This document shows, in pieces, positions 2,788 to 61,641 of a stretch of 64,000 bases of DNA; the first letter of the stretch is position 1, and every line of letters begins with the position of its first letter. Location: positions 930,001-994,000 of the forward strand of contig JAYWIR010000037.1 of NCBI GenBank assembly GCA_036172245.1, written 5' to 3'. The notes under the pieces were generated by a model. It did not search any database, was not told the DNA's origin, and saw nothing but the letters and a program-made list of their open reading frames with translations. Source of the stretch: Raillietiella orientalis (Eukaryota). A program made the translations under genes and the position numbers.

Positions 2788-4082
2788 CTCGGTTCATCAC
2801 CCGGTCACGCCAGGACGTTTATCATAAAAAATAAACATACATGTGTAGAGCCATCGACCCTACATTGTATGAAAACGCTCGGAACCTGCCGAGTAACCGG
2901 CACGCAGGCCAGCAAGGTTCGCCTCGGCAGCGATGGGGGAGAGGACAAACAAAAATAAAAAGAAAAGAAAAACAATAAAAGAAAACAAAATTGGGAGGGT
3001 TAGGGAAGGGATTACCGGGAGCCGAAGGGCGTCCTCTGCATCCTTTCCAGGATGCCGGGGAGTTCCATCCGAGTATGCCCCAAATGGTGCCATCCTGCTG
3101 CTGTCCACAGTACACCGAGAGCGAAGCCGATGGCGTCCCTATCGTGCCGTCCTCCTCTCGCGTAGCTCCAGCCTGCCACAATTCCACGTAGGCAGCGGAG
3201 AGCTGTTAGGGATGCGGCAGAAGAAAGGGCATTGCGCACGAAGAGGCGCTTCAACACGTCACCGGGATTGTCCGTCGGGGCACCGAGGGCCGTTGCGTAA
3301 CGCAACCACAGGGGCCGGAGAGCAACACAGTCTACAAGCAGATGCAGGAGAGATTCCCGTTCCCCGCACCTGCCACAGTTGGGGTCCACAGCCTCCCGGG
3401 TCCAGTGAGACCGTTTCACGAGAGACCTCAGTGCAACAGAAGTGCCGACTCCTGCCACTTCAAGGAGAGGGTCCGGCTGTTCTTCAGCTCTGGGGGCCAC
3501 TCGAGCTCTTCCTGTGGGATTCCCAGCAGCTCACCCCAGTGCAATAGTCCTTTCGACGGGACACTTGATATCGCAGCGTCCGTGAGCTGGCCCGTGCTTC
3601 AGTCATCTACTTCCCTCGTCTTCTGACTGATTGCGCAACAGACCTCCCATTTGGCCAGATGATTACTGCCCAGGTGTGCTCCCCAAGGAAGAGCAGTGCC
3701 TCGGCTAGGGAGATTCTTCGCGCCCACGTACACACGTGGTGGGCTGCACGATGATGTCCTGCAGCGAGTGGTTGTTGTAGAAGGAATGCCGCAGTCGCTG
3801 CCGCATCTCCGGGCTCGGTTCGTTGTTCTTGACCCACGTGCGAACGGTTTCCTAAAATCAGACACTACCGTTCGCGGGCCGGCAGAAGATTCAGTTGTTG
3901 GTTTTGGTCAGCTCGTCCACCCTCCGGAGCTCCAGCCCACAGCTGGACACGTTGCGTCTGCGCCGCCGCGCCGGGAAAGAAGACAGTTCCGCGTAGCCGG
4001 TGGCTCGCGTGACCAGGTATCTTGTGGACTGGCACCAGTTCGTGCTCCAAAGCTTTTCCACTAGGGCAAGCGTCCTCCACTG
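2788..4082 (-). mobile_element. 3' fragment of a non-LTR retrotransposon (L1/Tx1-like, zf-RVT CCHC knuckle); left arm of a 1,295-bp inverted repeat
   Basis: Reverse complement of 8016-9310 (paired coordinates sum to 12098). Encodes DPNCGRCGERESLLHLLVDC (C-x2-C-x7-H-x4-C, 3327-3377), followed by a T-rich 3' UTR. Confidence 0.8.
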
Positions 4083-4210
4083 ACTTTTACTCGGGCAGCT
4101 GCGAGGCAGCTCCGTTGGTCATCGGGGCCGAAATTTCGCGTGGAGGATGTGTTCCCCCTCGAGGTGGATGCGCCTGGAGGACAGGCACGCACGCATCCAC
4201 CTACGGAAGC
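4083..4210 (+). repeat. Dispersed repeat, copy 1 (inverted homologue at 9537-9663)
   Basis: Shares AAATTTCGCGTGGAGGATGTG and CCTGGAGGACAGGCACGCACGCATCCACCT with the reverse complement of 9537-9663; roughly 85% identity by eye. Confidence 0.75.
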
Positions 4211-8015: not shown

Positions 8016-9310
8016 CAGTGGAGGACGCTTGCCCTAGTGGAGAAGCTTTGGAGCACGAACTGGTGCCAGTCCACAAGATACCTGGTCACGCGAGCCACCG
8101 GCTACGCGGAACTGTCTTCTTTCCCGGCGCGGCGGCGCAGACGCAACGTGTCCAGCTGTGGGCTGGAGCTCCGGAGGGTGGACGAGCTGACCAAAACCAA
8201 CAACTGAATCTTCTGCCGGCCCGCGAACGGTAGTGTCTGATTTTAGGAAACCGTTCGCACGTGGGTCAAGAACAACGAACCGAGCCCGGAGATGCGGCAG
8301 CGACTGCGGCATTCCTTCTACAACAACCACTCGCTGCAGGACATCATCGTGCAGCCCACCACGTGTGTACGTGGGCGCGAAGAACCTCCCTAGCCGAGGC
8401 ACTGCTCTTCCTTGGGGAGCACACCTGGGCAGTAATCATCTGGCCAAATGGGAGGTCTGTTGCGCAATCAGTCAGAAGACGAGGGAAGTAGATGACTGAA
8501 GCACGGGCCAGCTCACGGACGCTGCGATATCAAGTGTCCCGTCGAAAGGACTATTGCACTGGGGTGAGCTGCTGGGAATCCCACAGGAAGAGCTCGAGTG
8601 GCCCCCAGAGCTGAAGAACAGCCGGACCCTCTCCTTGAAGTGGCAGGAGTCGGCACTTCTGTTGCACTGAGGTCTCTCGTGAAACGGTCTCACTGGACCC
8701 GGGAGGCTGTGGACCCCAACTGTGGCAGGTGCGGGGAACGGGAATCTCTCCTGCATCTGCTTGTAGACTGTGTTGCTCTCCGGCCCCTGTGGTTGCGTTA
8801 CGCAACGGCCCTCGGTGCCCCGACGGACAATCCCGGTGACGTGTTGAAGCGCCTCTTCGTGCGCAATGCCCTTTCTTCTGCCGCATCCCTAACAGCTCTC
8901 CGCTGCCTACGTGGAATTGTGGCAGGCTGGAGCTACGCGAGAGGAGGACGGCACGATAGGGACGCCATCGGCTTCGCTCTCGGTGTACTGTGGACAGCAG
9001 CAGGATGGCACCATTTGGGGCATACTCGGATGGAACTCCCCGGCATCCTGGAAAGGATGCAGAGGACGCCCTTCGGCTCCCGGTAATCCCTTCCCTAACC
9101 CTCCCAATTTTGTTTTCTTTTATTGTTTTTCTTTTCTTTTTATTTTTGTTTGTCCTCTCCCCCATCGCTGCCGAGGCGAACCTTGCTGGCCTGCGTGCCG
9201 GTTACTCGGCAGGTTCCGAGCGTTTTCATACAATGTAGGGTCGATGGCTCTACACATGTATGTTTATTTTTTATGATAAACGTCCTGGCGTGACCGGGTG
9301 ATAAACCGAG
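8016..9310 (+). mobile_element. 3' fragment of a non-LTR retrotransposon (L1/Tx1-like, zf-RVT CCHC knuckle); right arm of the inverted repeat
   Basis: LHWGELLGIPQEELEWP..LKWQESALLLH* is followed, after a frameshift, by DPNCGRCGERESLLHLLVDCVALRPLW (8721-8771), the typical zf-RVT pattern. The stop is at 9086, followed by a T-rich tail. In-frame stops are shared with the left arm. Confidence 0.8.
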
Positions 9311-9536
9311 GCTGTGTTGCAAAAAGCTGCAAGAGGAAGGCAGAGGTGGACTGCAGGAGAGGAGGAATGGGGATGGGAAGAGCAAGATGGAGAGGAAGAA
9401 TGAAGAGGGATGGAGAAGACCCATGAGTGAGACCTCTGCACGACGAAACAGGAGGCGGAATCCTGTGGTTTCTGAGCGCTCAAGCCTCACGCCTTCCCGT
9501 GACGGGAGGAGACATGCGACTGCGCGCGGCGGCTTT

Positions 9537-9663
9537 TCCGCAGGTGGATGCGTGCGTGCCTGTCCTCCAGGAGCACCCACCTCGAGGGCAATCACATCCT
9601 CCACGCGAAATTTCAACCCCGATGCCCAACAGAGCTGCCTCGCGGCTGCCAAAGTAAAGGTCA
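9537..9663 (-). repeat. Dispersed repeat, copy 2 (homologue of 4083-4210); probably part of a decayed retroelement
   Basis: Direct by-eye alignment to 4083-4210 in the opposite orientation. Confidence 0.75.
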
Positions 9664-16500: not shown

Positions 16501-17227
16501 TTGGAGCGGCCGTGTGACTGTGGTCTCCTCGCGTAGCACCTGGCGTTGCAGGTTCGAATCCCAGCCGGGGGAGGATCGGCGCCGAGAAATGGGGATGCAC
16601 CGCGAGTTTCGAGTCTCTTCCACGGGATGACAGTGGCTGGTCTGTAGGCTTTGGGTGCCGCACTGGCGGAAGCAGCCGCAAACCGGATGCCTTCGTTGAG
16701 TCGCCGGGATTGCCTGAAGCTGATCCTCCGGGGTTCGCCTCCGGTTGCGCAAATGGAGTCGTCTCCTCCCTCCTCGAAGGGGTGGTATACACGATGGAGG
16801 GTATACCACCCCTTCGGATACACCATGGAGCTGGTGGATTGATGACATCTCTCCAGAGTATGAAGAAGCGCTCTGCTCTCTCCGGGGAGCGCCCTTCTGA
16901 GAAACTGGGGAGCGTCCCTTCGGAGTTCTCTTCAGATGAGCGCTTCGCTTGCAGGTGCCCTACGGAGAAGAAACGAGGAGTGACCCCTTCCGGAGTTTCT
17001 CCGGAGAGAACAAGGAAGAGGTGGTTTCCTTCGAAGTTCCTTCCCAAGCTCAAGAGGAACGGGAACCAGGGAACCAGGGAGTCTGGAGAACTCACTGGTT
17101 TCATGAGGTGGTCCCTTCGGGGTTGCCCCTCTAACTGGAAGAGTTAAACGCTTCGTCTGGTGGCATGGACAGTGTTAAAGAGATTCATTAGTTCCCTCCC
17201 TCCTCGTAAGGGAGGCGAACGGTTCTT
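16501..17227 (+). mobile_element. tRNA-headed SINE-like element, copy A (near full length)
   Basis: Pol III B-box GGTTCGAATCC at 16551-16561 with a degenerate A-box upstream. The body is homologous to copies at 20054-20650, 24358-24948 and 60985-61641. Ends in GGCGAACGGTTCT. Confidence 0.8.
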
Positions 17228-18689
17228 AACTACTTGGCGAATCCAAAGAAAAAAAAAAAGCTGCAAATCGGGAAGTGAGCTGGGGTGGGAAACAGGTTTC
17301 CACATAGCAAAAATGGGTAGGGCACAGTCACCTTATTTAAAAGGAAAAAAAAGTCATCTGATTGCGGATGTCAAAAAGTGACACATTTCTTTTTCGCCGT
17401 TGCAACCCGAAAGGAGGCACCACAATGAAGACCACAGAATGAGTTTTTTTTTTTTTTTTTTTTTTTTTCCACTAGCAGACGAGCATGAAAGTCGAGATTA
17501 AAACCTGGAGATGGGTCTAAAGATGAAAGCTAATAGAAAAGAAACTACAAGACGTCTCGAAACTATCCTTCCTGCTGAAAACAGAAAAAAAAAAACACTT
17601 TTGGAAGGGACTTTCGATTCGTCAATCCATAAATCGAAGCAAATGAGTGTCCTGAATTAAAGTTCATCATGAAAGTCAGCCATCAGTATTGTTGCCGGAG
17701 AGCAGAGGTCAAACTTTCGATTTTTCAACTGAACCAAAGATTAAACGGCACCAAAATTTAAACATCCGTCTTTTCGTGGGAATGGTGATTCGTGAATGAA
17801 GCACCACCTATCCGACCCTGAAGCCTTCGATCTTCCAAAGTGCAAACCGCTCACTGAGGCGGGTTCAGTCGTGCCTTGCGTGGAGCAGGTCCTCATCTTA
17901 GCAGAGGGACGCAGAGGTTTTTGCGGCCGGATTCTACAATGCATCCTCGCAAAGCGCTGTTCAAAATTCTGGGAACCATCTGCTCACAAACCATGTGCCA
18001 ACAAAATATTCTGGCTTGCACTTTTAGAGGAGACTAGTAGAACTGATGTTGCATCGTGACCGGTCCTCTCCGTCGTCAACAAGAAAACATGGGATCAGGA
18101 AATCACTGCAAGAATGCTCGATCTTTTAATCCGTTGGGTTCAGACTGAACTTGGAGAGGTCCATGCTTTTACGAGTGAACGAGCTAAGCTTGCATCAGTG
18201 CAGGGCATCAGAAAACCGAATCCTCCGGTGCATCGGTGCCACTAGCCTCAATGAATTGAGAGAAGCATGTCACTGAGGAAGCATGGACCTATTCGCATCA
18301 CGTTCCATCTTTGAAAAAGTCCACGTTCTTGAAACGCAAGGAGAGTTGGCACTGGACAAACCTTCAATGGTAATTCTAACCTTGCTACCAAGAGGATAAG
18401 TCTGAAATACTGTTTTTCCCTGGAGGAATTTTGGATGGAGACAAGAGCATTCGCTTTGAAGGAAAACTTTTCCTTCTCCATCATCATAGGATGATGCCAA
18501 AAAAGTTCATGTCACTAGACTCTGAAAGAAGATTCGGATCATGGTTGTTTCGTTAGAGAAGAACTGCTAATGCTTGCTGCAAACACGACAGCAAAGCAAA
18601 GAAGAAAAGATGTCATTAGACAATGTTGGTTGCTGTCTCTGAGATGTGCTGTGGTCCGAATGATCAGATGCTGCAAAAGCAACCAGAAC

Positions 18690-20053: not shown

Positions 20054-20650
20054 TTGGAGGCCATGTGGCTGCGATGGATCTCCGCGTGTGGTACCAAACG
20101 TTGCGGGCTTGAATCCCCTCCTGGAGCAACGGCACCGATAAAAGGGGGTGCATCGTGAGTTTCGTGTCCTCCCCGTAGAGCGATGCTGGCTGGTCTTGAA
20201 GGCTTTGGGTGTAGAACTGGTGAAAGTCTGATGCCCCCACTGACCAGCCGGGATTGGAAGCTGACCCTCCGAGGTCCTTTCAGGAATCAAGGAGCCGGTT
20301 CACTTCGGGGTTCCCCTCCAGTTGTGCAAATGGAGTAGTCCCCTCCCCCCTCGAAGGAGCACCTTCCATCGGGTACATCATGGACTGGTGGATGTTACCT
20401 CACCAGAAAGTAAAAAAGTACGCTGCTCCCTTCGGGGAGCCACTGAAGGAAGAGCTTTCCAGAAAAATTTGGAAGCGCACCTTCGGGGCTCTCTTCAGAG
20501 GAGCGGTTCCCTTGAAAATCCACTCCGAAGAAAAAATTCAGGAGCGGATCCTCTCGGGCTTCCTTGAGGAGAAGAAACGAGGCGTGGTCCCCTCTGAGGG
20601 GTTCCTCCGTAAAGAATAAAGAAGAGGTTCCCTTTGAAATTTCCTTCGGA
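20054..20650 (+). mobile_element. tRNA-headed SINE-like element, copy B (diverged, 3'-truncated)
   Basis: A-box-like TGGCTGCGATGG and degenerate B-box GGCTTGAATCC. The body is collinear with copy A and shares a ~35-nt insert (about 20271-20305) with copy D. Confidence 0.75.
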
Positions 20651-23600: not shown

Positions 23601-24357
23601 TTCCTTTTCCTCCCTTCCTCTCTTCTTTTTCAATCGATCAGCGGACTGAAGTTGGTCTTCTTCTTTCTCTTTGTCCATTGATGGCTTCATACATATGTGG
23701 TGACGCAGACTCTTTTGTTTGCTCCGCCCCAGCCGCGCTCTGAAACGCTTGCTCCTGGAACTCCCTGTAATCCTTGATGTCCTCGCGTTCTGTTCTCTCC
23801 TCGACTCTCCCACAGGCGCTCGAACAATGGCGGGAAACTTCGAATCAGGAATCCAGGGAATTCCACTGGCTACATTGCGCAGAGAGTCTCCTGGGAGGGA
23901 GCGCATGCGCCCTTCGACTTCGAATCCATCTTGCGATTCCGACGCAAAAGACCTGAAGAGCGGAAGCTCGGAAAAAGGAACGGGATGGAAGAGGGGAGGA
24001 AACCTCCGCGCGCTGCGCAGAGGCGAGAATTGAAGATGCAAGGAGAGGGCCTGAAAGCAGAGGTTGCCGAGGTGCAAGAACATCGGGAATCCCGGAGAGA
24101 GCGGCAGAGAGGCGATCTCCTGAAAGGGAAGAGGGCGGGGCTAGAGGAATGCGAGTACATGCGTACCGACTCTCCTCTCGGTACCCCTCGCATGGACGCC
24201 AAAGACGTACTTCATCGACTCCTGCCGATGCGTTTCTCCGCCCACTGCTCGGGAAGCTGCTTCCTGAACACACCGGACATTGAGCTGACCAAGGAGGTGG
24301 TCGATGCGTGTGCTGCTCGATCTTTCCGTTCTCCCGGAGCCGTTTCGTGGCGTATTC

Positions 24358-24948
24358 AAGAACCGTTCGCCCCCCTTACGAGGAGGGAGGGAACTAATGA
24401 ATCTCTTTAACACTGTCCATGCCACCAGACGAAGCGTTTAACTCTTCCAGTTAGAGGGGCAGCCCCGAAGGGACCACCTCATGAAACCAGCGAGTTCTCC
24501 AGACTCCCTGGTTCCCCGGTTCCCGTTCCTCTTGAGCTTGGGAAGGAACTTCGAAGGAAACCACCTCTTTTTTTGTTCTCTCCGGAGGGACCCCCGGCAG
24601 GGGTCACTCCTCGTTTCTTCTCCGTAGGGAACCTGCAAGCGAAGCGCTCATCTGAAGAGAACTCCGAAGGGACGCTCCCCAGTTTCTCAGAAGGACGCTC
24701 CCCGGAGAGAGCAGAGCGCTTCTTCATACTCTGGAGAGATCTCATCAATCCACCAGCTCCATGGTATATCCGAAGGGGTGGTATACCCTCCATCGGGTAT
24801 ACCACCCCTTCGAGGAGGGAGGAGACGACTCCATTTGCGCAACCGGAGGCGAACCCCAGAGGATCAGCTTAAGGCAATCCCGGCGACTCAACGAAGGCAT
24901 CCGGTTTCCGGCTGCTCCTGCCAGTGCCGCACCCGAAGCCTACAGACC
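24358..24948 (-). mobile_element. SINE-like element, copy C (5'-truncated, close relative of copy A)
   Basis: The reverse complement aligns at high identity to 16639-17227, including the 3' terminus; the ORF track shows near-identical translations. Confidence 0.85.
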
Positions 24949-32410: not shown

Positions 32411-34281
<1,871 letters not shown>

Positions 34282-40810: not shown

Positions 40811-43289
40811 ATGCTCGCACACAAAAAGGCAGACAGACAGGCACACATGCACGCATACACCACGTGCACGATTATCAGCTGATAATTAATGCTCGCAATA
40901 CCTGAGGAACATTCGACTTGATCAGTTTGCATTGCTGCAGCTCACGGAACGGAACTTAACAGCTAATGAAGGATGTAAGAGCCTCGTTACTGGGCAACAC
41001 GCGACGGCTGATGCAGCGACGAGTATAAATTTATGACCATGAAGGCCGTGCATGCCGGTGATCCGGCGCAAGAAGCCGAAATTAATTTTGCAGAATCGAT
41101 GCGCCACGTGACTCCACCATCGTGAACAAACAGGCAATCCTCCTCGCGGCTCCTATCGATCATCTTCCCGTTTCAAGCAGAGGCGCGCACACAAACGGTT
41201 GCTTGTGTCCTGGGTGAGTAGACCCCGCAGACAAGAAGATGGGGAATGGATCGGCTTGAACGTTTCCCTCTAGGAACTGGGAGGAGGTCAGAGAGTCGAC
41301 GCCGCCGCAAGTGGTTTGCTCCCGTCCGGTGTCCCCTCCCCTTCCTCTCTTGCTAATCCTTGCTCCTGCGTGTGGTTCGGCTTAGTACGGTGGTGACACA
41401 CTGTCAGGCGGTGCGGGAGTCAGGGAGAATGACATGGGAAAGTCTTTCGGGTGACAAAGGGAATCCGCGATCAAAGCTGGTGGTGCAGCGGCTCGCAAAC
41501 AACCAACCGTCCTCCCACTTTGAGAGCGACCTTGAATCCCCGCTAGCAACGCAGGGATTTTTAACCATGCGGCAATGAAAATAAAACAACGGCAAGGAAA
41601 ACAGTGGGAAGAGGGAACAACAATGAGGAACAAAGATGGCGAGAAACGGTGAGGAGAAACAACAGCAAGAAGGCACAATGGGGGGAGAGTTTTCAACTAG
41701 CAATAATCGCGCCTCTCTTTCGTTCAGCGGCGGCGATACTGCCCGTGAGCAAGGTTAGGGAGAGGGGGGAGCACAGTTGTGTACTGTCCTCAGTTGCTGC
41801 GCGACGAAGTCATCATCCCCCAATGACGAGCGAGGAGCGTTTGAGAAAGCGGTGCGCGCGCGCGTGCGGCGTGCGTGCTTGCGTGCACGGCGCGCCTGGG
41901 GAGAGGGAGACGGACTCGCAAGTTCTCGGGAGACCTGCACGGAAGGGAAGAGAGGAAAAGGGGATGGCGACCGTCCAGCCACAGGTGACGTCACTTCCTG
42001 CATTCACGTTCCAGATTCCCTCCGCTCCCTTCCTTTAAAACTCAAGGGACCTATCTGGCTCGAGCTCAGGAGGAGACGGATCCCGGAATTCCGCGCCTAG
42101 GAAGGACACCTCCTCCTAGTGGCAGTGGTTGGAGAATCGGGGGGTTACGTGAGTGGACACGAGTAGCACATCCGGTCACGCGGAAAGCCGAAAGATCCCC
42201 TTCTCTCTCCCCTTCCCCACCCTCTCCATCCCCTCTTTCATCCGATCGACAGACGACGAAGAAGGAAGTCGGACATGCGGGAGGGGAAGGGGGGGGGCTG
42301 AGAGGAAGAGCGAGGAGAAGAAAGAAAGAAGAAGGATATGTTAATTCTTCCACTTTCCCTCGCAAGAAAAGCAAGCAATTACGACCTGTTAGGAGGCCAA
42401 CCGTAAATCTCGTCGGTGCTGCCGTATACCTGCTACAGCAGGATGAGAAAAAGGGAAGAAGACATCTTTATGGCCGCCTTCTTTGTCAGAGGCACTGAAC
42501 ACGCTACCGGAAGGCATTCCCGACAGGCTCGATTCTCAGCCTCATCGCCATATCTCTGCATGTATTTTTTTCCCTTCTTTTTCGGCATCTTCCCTCTTCC
42601 TCCTTTTCTTCGTCCTCCCCTCCTTCCTCTCCCTTCCCCTGTCGCCAGGTGATTGATGCTGATTTACGAAGCTGATGGAAGCGGAGAAGATCTTCTTTCA
42701 GCTCCTTTGGTTCCCACGCTTTCTGGAAACCTCCCGATGATGATTTTAGGATTCCGTCTGACGTCCAGCTCTCCTACAGGTAGCACCGCCTTCTCCGGGA
42801 CGCCCTGGGCAAGCGAAAATCAGAAACGTTCCCAGCACGCCGAAAAGAGAGGGATAGGAGCATTCCCGCGACTTCCTCAGCCGGAAACTTCTGGGAGGGA
42901 ACGAAGGAACTCTTTCCAGGAAGAAAAGCCTCCACTCAGTAGGGACATGAGCATCCCCCGGGTTCATCCCTGCCGCAGGCACACCTCTTACTGCTGGCAC
43001 TTTTCCCCTCGTCCGGGGAGCCTCCGTAAAAGAAAGGAAGTCAGGAACGCGCCCCTGGAGGCTTGCAGCTGCAACTTTCGTATGGGATGACAGCACGATA
43101 CGAGGGAGAAATGGAAGGAAGGGAGGACTTCCTTCCGTATCCTCTTCTTTTCTGCCTCTCTTCCTCTCCTCCTTCTTGCATCCCCTCCTACTCCTCATAC
43201 TCTTTTCATACGAGAGTAGACTCCTTGCTGTTCCCTCCTTCTCGGTGTGGGGTGTACGAAGGAGAGGGAAGGGAACGAAAAGTTAAAAG

Positions 43290-60984: not shown

Positions 60985-61641
60985 AGAACCGTTCGCCTAC
61001 TTAGGAGAGACTCACAGAGTTCTTTAACACAGTGCACACCACTTCAGGGTGCGTGTCACTGTTCAGATTTTAGGGGGCAACCCCGGAGGGACCACCTTAT
61101 GAATCCAGGAAAGCTCGGGAATAAGAAGTCCGTTTCTTTTGCGCTTGGGAAGAAACTCCGAAGGGAACCTCTTCCTTATCCTCACAGGACGGTCCCTTGG
61201 GGGGGTCACTCCTCGTTTCTTTTCCAAAGGGAAGCGCTCCTCTGAAGAGAACCCCAAAGGGAGATCCTAATTTCTCCGAAGGACGCTCCCCGAAGGGAGT
61301 GGCGCTCTTCTGACACTCTGGAGAGGCGACTCCTGTGGGGAGGACATCAACCATCTCCATGGTACACTCTGTTTCGCAGCCGGAGGAGGACTCCGAAGTG
61401 AACCAGCTCTTTGATTCCTGGAAGGGTCCCGGATGCTCGACTTCCAATCCCGGACAGTAAACGGGAACATCTAGATTTTACCAGTACCGCACCCGAAGCC
61501 CGTGGGTCAACTAGCGTCGTCCTGCGTGGAGGACCCGAAACCCACGACGCACCGCCCATTTCTCGGCGTCGATTTTCCACGTGGGGATTCGAACCCGCAG
61601 CGCTTTATCACATCGGAGACTGTGGGCAACACGGCAACCAA
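60985..61641 (-). mobile_element. tRNA-headed SINE-like element, copy D (diverged, near full length)
   Basis: B-box at 61585-61595 (GGTTCGAATCC on the minus strand), body collinear with copies A-C, same 3' terminus GGCGAACGGTTCT (60985-60997). Confidence 0.8.

Follow-up and report, generated by a model that had tools for sequence, protein, structure and literature searches.

A long, tRNA-headed repeat family, probably of SINE type, whose body carries a degenerate array of CTTCGG-containing units

Results

The locus and its surroundings

The DNA analysed here, referred to as the window, is a stretch of 64 kb, and is animal DNA of an arthropod-like kind. The whole window is GC-rich, with observed/expected ratios of 0.87 for CpG and 0.47 for TpA, the former value indicating little sign of methylation-driven CpG loss in the window.

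An intronless open reading frame encoding a FoxG/sloppy-paired-like forkhead protein is found at 32650–34281 (+). It runs for 543 codons from stop to stop and matches the Pfam Forkhead family with an E-value of 3e-39. The predicted protein has long acidic tracts and a His run, and the two Atlas clusters closest to it are of slp2-like type, mostly from arthropods.

Two 1295-bp copies of the 3′ fragment of an L1/Tx1-like LINE are present in inverted orientation, at 2788–4082 (−) and 8016–9310 (+). They are 99.8% identical, share a 5′ break and also the ~30 nt that follow an A-rich signal, and have different flanks; the fragment gives a weak match to zf-RVT (E 0.024), below the cut-off. The pair represents a recent local duplication, a targeted insertion or an assembly artefact. 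A further inverted pair of 128 bp, 89% identical, is located at 4081–4208 and 9536–9663. Its first member adjoins the 5′ break of the first LINE copy, and its second lies 226 bp beyond the 3′ end of the second LINE copy. Finally, a 3′-truncated fragment of U4 snRNA is found at 41677–41756 (−) (Rfam 52.6 bits, E 7e-9), with pyrimidine-rich sequence after it, and is either a pseudogene or a retroelement's U4 head.

Four copies of one element

The window also contains four copies, here called A to D, of an element of less than 1 kb (Table 1). The copies are dispersed and non-tandem, are 597–759 nt long, lie on both strands and together make up 4% of the window. Their presence at these places had been claimed in a preliminary description of this DNA, and is borne out by self-BLAST and by a profile built from the four copies, which give the bounds listed in Table 1 for B, C and D, and 16501–17227 (+) for A. 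Copy A probably extends past 17227 to an A-rich tail, and is listed with it. No fifth copy was found in the 64-kb window using nhmmer, the next match having an E-value of 0.21, and an exact 26-nt family motif retrieved no stretches from metagenome contigs.

Table 1 Positions in the window of the four copies and of features within them
Feature	Position	Strand	Remarks
Copy A	16501..17259	+	Most complete; tRNA-like head, body, unit array, 3′ end, A-rich tail
B box of A	16551..16561	+	Perfect GGTTCGAATCC; A box ~35 nt upstream degenerate
Inverted duplication of A	16775..16816	+	Near-perfect, 16-bp arms; in A and C only
Unit array of A	16871..17140	+	Degenerate, quasi-tandem, ~40-nt units (some ~28–30 nt); carries most CTTCGG-like words
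Shared hairpin in A	16875..16890	+	Common to all four copies; loop TCCG in A and C, TTCG in B and D
13-mer near 3′ end	17214..17226	+	Identical in A, C and D
A-rich tail	17245..17259	+	Copy A; not seen in C or D
Copy B	20054..20650	+	Head with worn B box, B/D block, clearest unit array; 3′ part missing
B box of B	20106–20116	+	Worn, two changes
Hairpin in B	20425..20440	+	UUCG-capped 6-bp stem; site of the shared hairpin
Copy C	24352..24948	−	5′-truncated, headless, 3′ end present; 95.6% identical to A
Inverted duplication of C	24771–24812		Counterpart of that in A
Copy D	60985..61641	−	Head with perfect B box, B/D block, ~60-nt internal gap, unit array, 3′ end
Hairpin in D	61286..61299	−	UUCG-capped 5-bp stem; orthologous to the hairpin in B
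B box of D	61585–61595	−	Perfect

The copies are not equally complete. The start of copy C, at 24948, corresponds to a point about 140 nt inside the element, and copy B is without the 3′ ~150 nt. Apart from the pair A–C, the copies have diverged considerably, with identities of 67% for A–B, 67% for A–D and 64% for B–D. As A and C are the sole close pair, the four copies amount to three independent lineages. The copies had been proposed to fall into two subfamilies, with B and D sharing an insert. The shared block is there (36 columns, at about 20274–20309 in B, and not present in A or C), but at 64% identity B and D do not form a tight subfamily.

Head, promoter and ends

The preliminary description called the element tRNA-headed. 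This holds for A, B and D, each of which has a tRNA-like head, but not for C, which starts downstream of it. A profile built from 38 phage tRNAs has as its two best matches in the window the B boxes of A (E 0.0037) and D (E 0.041); the worn B box of B is unmatched by it. Against this panel, which consists of phage tRNAs only, the best tRNA identity over at least 60 nt is 59% for A, 61% for B and 60% for D, compared with a null mean of 57% and a null maximum of 64%, and with the criterion used by SINEBase for tRNA origin, namely at least 60% tRNA identity over at least 60 nt. The scores of the head–tRNA alignments are in the top 1.5–2.5% of 200 random stretches. The head may resemble tRNA-His, which in the phage panel ranks second, for B only. 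Searches for tRNA genes over the copies returned none, whether by ARAGORN (0 genes) or by Rfam, and BLAST of the heads against phages gave matches to the T arm only, with E-values of 0.7–9. SINEBase takes Pol III boxes as an indication and not as proof (PMC3531059).

A run of four T residues on the sense strand is absent from all four copies, where 1.3–1.9 would be expected in each; of 546 GC-matched stretches of the window, 14% are also without one. This absence fits Pol III read-through. Runs of four A residues occur five times each in B and D and not at all in A, and because A thus lacks both kinds of run, and because the copies are not independent, the T-run test is weakened.

Similarity at the 3′ end falls off quickly, in that beyond the 13-mer A and D agree at 12 of the next 25 positions. 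No convincing target-site duplication is seen at any of the four copies. The candidate at D is an 8-mer located 69 nt upstream, and about 10% of random flank pairs share an 8-mer. Terminal inverted repeats were not found either, the longest shared terminal inverted word being 4–6 nt. Within copy A, an 18-nt direct repeat (16765–16781 and 17195–17212) links the middle of the copy to its 3′ hairpin; it is also found in C, and is absent from the 3′ end of D. There is in addition a 10-nt inverted match between body and 3′ end, at positions 233–242 and 711–720 of copy A (16733–16742 and 17211–17220), which has one G–U pair in C and is broken in D. When the tail was compared with the 3′ UTR of the local LINE, the result was p 0.04 (uncorrected) for A, 0.28 for C and 0.64 for D, and no match exceeding chance was established. 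A resemblance of the LINE 3′ end to the SINE head was also considered and rejected, as it reaches the top 4–5% of tiles only.

By eye, a stretch 35–45 nt past the B box matches part of the V domain of V-SINEs at 17 of 21 columns in B and at 18 of 23 in D. Membership of this superfamily was rejected, the V core being absent at up to three mismatches and profile tests in both directions being not significant. The test set for V consisted of 122 loci with the V-core motif, with 38 in a down-sampled panel. Among 150 random stretches, 97% equalled or exceeded the best local score of A against the 38-locus panel, 7% that of B and 29% that of D, and a profile of the region after the B box gave no match at E≤1 against the 122 loci. 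A profile of the heads of A, B and D, searched against the head region of the same loci, gave 24 matches at E≤1, against 0 on the reversed loci. Metagenome contigs yield at least 121 loci with the V-core motif, and a viral contig one more, which together fall into 19 sequence clusters; such collections commonly contain host animal SINE DNA.

The hexamer CTTCGG and the internal array

The sense strand of the element is rich in the hexamer CTTCGG, which occurs 3 times in A, 4 in B, 4 in C and 5 in D. The preliminary description had listed these sites and had put the chance expectation at less than one per copy. All 16 of its coordinates are exact, and the enrichment is confirmed by shuffling, with mean counts of 0.43 (A), 0.26 (B), 0.40 (C) and 0.31 (D); out of 1000 shuffles of each copy, the observed count was reached by 12 for A and by 0 for B, C and D. 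A background of 122.8 kb contains 54 sites, or 0.31 per 700 nt, so that the copies are about ten times higher. The hexamer is also strand-specific, with 16 sites on the sense strand and 1 on the antisense strand across the four copies.

A count of hexamers is not a count of hairpins, however, and internal duplication inflates any word in the repeated unit. The copies do contain such a unit. The units of the array listed in Table 1 start with a CCCTTCGG-like word, have a blocky distribution of purines and pyrimidines, and are worn. Copy B shows them most clearly, with three units in succession starting at 20505, 20547 and 20589. With permissive settings, TRF missed the ~40-nt array. Lags of 50–52, 67–69, 80–82 and 118–122 stand out for repeated 5-mers (z 4.9–7.6, the 99th percentile of the null maximum being 5.4), and a lag of 40–41 is not among the top 12. 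A unit profile made from five segments of B gave 28 matches at E≤3.6, of which 6 are in B, 14 in the ~2 kb of A, C and D, and 8 in the other ~61 kb. When each orthologous group of units was left out of the training, 10 of 16 units were recovered at scores met by at most 5 outside sites; of the remainder, 4 were weak (one of them on the wrong strand) and 2 were missed. The units had been delimited by eye, a procedure that favours such an outcome. Because the hexamer is part of the ~40-nt duplicated unit, internal duplication accounts for most of the excess of CTTCGG. It does not account for all of it, and the hexamers at 24933 in C and 61493 in D precede the array.

Hairpins

On the preliminary description the element is packed with tetraloop hairpins, a view that the stems at the hexamers do not sustain. 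At 11 of the 16 CTTCGG sites the contiguous stem is 1 bp, that is, the closing C–G pair alone. A stem of at least 3 bp is found at 4 of 16 sites, against 9 of 54 in the background, and one of at least 5 bp at 2 of 16, against 0 of 54. In local partition-function folding, the UUCG loop exceeds P 0.5 at 4 of 16 sites when the flanks are 15 nt long (background 5/54) and at 3 of 16 when they are 30 nt long (background 2/54). The excess of loop closure over background is modest, and it speaks for the proposal that the hexamers cap hairpins. At some sites, such as 16918 in A and 61158 in D, local folding prefers a shifted register with a CUUC loop, and when the copies are folded at full length P is no higher than 0.12 for any CTTCGG site.

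The inverted duplication, present in A and C only, probably arose by template switching. The hexamer at 16812 in A is located in its 3′ arm, outside any loop. The duplications of the two copies differ at one position, in the loop region.

Copies A, B and D were folded whole and compared with 20 shuffles each, giving z-scores of −2.6, −2.4 and −0.66, respectively. Folding in 150-nt windows gave z-scores below −2 for one window of 8 in A, that with the inverted duplication, for 2 of 6 in B (−3.6 and −3.3) and for 0 of 7 in D, the minimum for 40 background stretches being −2.4. The array region of B is thus well folded, but D does not share this.

Conservation of the fold

Of nine orthologous sites, none keeps CTTCGG in all four copies. 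The stems cited in the preliminary description as staying paired despite substitution, one each from B, A and D, do exist as hairpins; the three are, however, a single orthologous site, with a TCCG loop in A and C. Among the 6 pairs of this shared hairpin there are no two-sided changes, one G–C pair has become G–U, and one pair is broken in D. Over the whole alignment, a two-sided change is seen in 21 of 149 predicted pairs, and the covariation term contributes −0.88 of −87.4 kcal/mol. When the alignment of A, B and D was divided into 17 windows of 120 columns, one beat column shuffles (z −3.1), this being the window that contains the shared hairpin, and two more reached p 0.025.

In these four copies and three lineages, covariation thus lends the preliminary description no support, with 0 of 6 compensatory changes in the shared hairpin and a covariation term of −0.88 of −87.4 kcal/mol. 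Its larger claim, that structural selection maintains an elaborate RNA fold with UUCG tetraloops, is likewise unsupported, given the absence of conserved sites (0/9) and of compensatory change and the single window in 17 that beats shuffles. Three independent lineages give little power, and there may be weak selection on local hairpins. Since dead copies decay neutrally, such tests of conservation are weak against selection confined to master copies.

Coding capacity and structured RNAs

A stop-free frame of 209 codons spans most of copy A. It is not kept in B, C or D, and no Pfam family was found in the three open reading frames over A, so that a coding origin was rejected. The element is on these grounds non-autonomous. 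No Pfam family was found in the open reading frames tested beside the copies.

The preliminary description had also suggested derivation from a cellular structured RNA. None but tRNA was found, and Rfam gave no match above chance over the copies, either in a search of the whole window or with A and D searched separately. Self-cleaving RNAs were considered and rejected. Seven CUGANGA or UUGANGA words occur, none of them with all three hammerhead stems longer than 2 bp, and no Rfam ribozyme was found. All four copies have a CUGAAGA word on their antisense strand, and its site is orthologous among them, but stem II does not form there. A descriptor for the HDV-like fold, a nested double pseudoknot, had 0 matches in the 8 strands.

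Discussion

Comparison with known elements

The rodent B2 SINE is much shorter than the element described here. Length also sets this element apart from the listed tRNA-derived SINEs, with which it shares a tRNA-like head with a B box, a non-coding body, dispersed copies of less than 1 kb and, in one copy, an A-rich tail. SINEBase in 2013 contained 175 families of 75–662 nt, with a mean of 253 nt, and the combination of a tRNA head, a body whose origin is unknown, and a tail was the commonest architecture, found in 41% of the 175 (PMC3531059). Compared with the range of 75–662 nt, the present element has ~730 nt without its tail; its head is at the 60% identity limit, and target-site duplications are not visible. 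Among the defining features of SINEs for which the copies gave a clear outcome, none is contradicted. The preliminary description had presented it as a mobile, non-coding element, long for a SINE and transcribed by Pol III, and this is upheld by the B boxes, the absence of T4 runs, the lack of a kept frame and the length of ~730 nt, transcription by Pol III being probable on the sequence.

A parallel in layout is given by the quasi-oligomeric CHRS SINEs, whose body consists of a tandem degenerate motif, with a number of units that varies between copies (PMC3531059). This is a likeness of layout only, and the unit there is of ~20 nt, against ~40 nt here, in a different host group (PMC3531059). 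The V-SINE superfamily, including Empe and Thedo of insects, has a tRNA head followed by the V domain, part of which the eye picks out here (PMC5804259, PMC4824008); the difference is that the V core is missing here at up to three mismatches. In crocodilians, SINEU elements are thought to be mobilised by LINEs of the Tx1 clade (Tx1-Mar), which bears comparison with the L1/Tx1-like fragment in this window; SINEU has heads from U1/U2 snRNA and a preferred target, whereas no shared target or tail is seen here (PMC4494074). Rodent B2 RNA is also tRNA-derived, and its fold has a reported function that includes self-cleavage (PMC13172522); for the element here covariation does not support a comparable fold. 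Judged by title or by the start of the abstract, no paper found in literature searches on SINEs with UUCG, or on tRNA-derived SINEs with internal tandem repeats in arthropods, describes such a family, which is probably undescribed.

Origin of the element and of its array

[quoted passage not shown] Pol III transcription, retrotransposition and the identity of the partner LINE are inferred from the anatomy of the copies together with the established biology of SINEs. Pol III would transcribe a master copy from the internal promoter formed by the A and B boxes, and, the body being without a T4 terminator, the transcript would be read to its end. A LINE reverse transcriptase, most likely that of an L1/Tx1-type element, would then use target-primed reverse transcription to copy the transcript, 3′ end first, into new sites, where an early stop would leave a 5′-truncated copy such as C. 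The body would have expanded by tandem duplication of a ~40-nt unit containing CCCTTCGG, and the units would subsequently have decayed, some of them still folding as small hairpins, in the UUCG or the shifted CUUC register, as an inherited feature.

Alternatively, the hairpin array may itself be the object of selection, with a fold that stabilises the long Pol III transcript or binds the proteins of the partner LINE multivalently, and with units amplified and kept for that fold. This would accommodate the roughly tenfold and strand-specific (16 against 1) excess of CTTCGG, a loop closure above background (4/16 against 5/54, and 3/16 against 2/54), the folding of the array region of B at z −3.6 and −3.3, and the persistence of one hairpin across copies of 64–67% identity, in the only alignment window at z −3.1. 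We consider it unlikely, since CTTCGG is kept in all copies at 0 of 9 orthologous sites and since none of the 6 pairs of the persistent hairpin shows a two-sided change, D has lost one of these pairs, and the loop is altered in A and C. The covariation term (−0.88 of −87.4 kcal/mol) is a further argument against it, as are the failure of D to fold better than shuffles (z −0.66, with 0 of 7 local windows below −2) and of any CTTCGG site to exceed P 0.12 in full-length folding. A more ambitious proposal would make of the element a SINE lineage that exceeds in length every family of SINEBase 2013, the length of its body having been selected for RNA structure and having grown by amplification of a hairpin module, which would stabilise the ~730-nt Pol III transcript or offer L1/Tx1 proteins a multivalent handle; the remains of a V domain might follow the head. 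This, too, we regard as unlikely.

A different kind of origin would be from a LINE directly, as an internally deleted derivative or a detached 5′ UTR. A tRNA-headed promoter built of tandem monomers would then be fused to a LINE 3′ end, and the units would represent either those monomers or repeats of ORF1 in decay. LINEs of the Tx1 clade whose heads come from U1/U2 have been published (PMC4494074), copy A has its 209-codon stop-free frame over most of its length, and its tail aligns weakly with the local LINE 3′ UTR (p 0.04). The frame is not kept in B, C and D and has no Pfam match, the tail alignment does not extend to C (p 0.28) or to D (p 0.64), and the tested open reading frames beside the copies contain no Pfam family, all of which makes such an origin very improbable. 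Still less probable is a non-autonomous DNA element, either a MITE or a Helentron-associated HINE, that has captured the head of a tRNA or SINE. Elements of these types often contain internal tandem repeats. The units of the present array and the want of a target-site duplication would agree with this, as would the hairpin near the 3′ end of A and C and the 10-nt inverted match between positions 233–242 and 711–720 of A; but the terminal inverted word is only 4–6 nt, D does not keep the 10-nt pairing, and the A-tail, the 5′-truncated copy and the avoidance of T4 runs fit retroposition better.

A LINE-dependent retroposon family with an array produced by duplication, the reading preferred here, would add one long and probably undescribed SINE family to a repeat library. 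Should the array turn out to be selected, it would offer a testable answer to the question of what the bodies of SINEs are for, and would show how a Pol III retroposon can exceed 700 nt.
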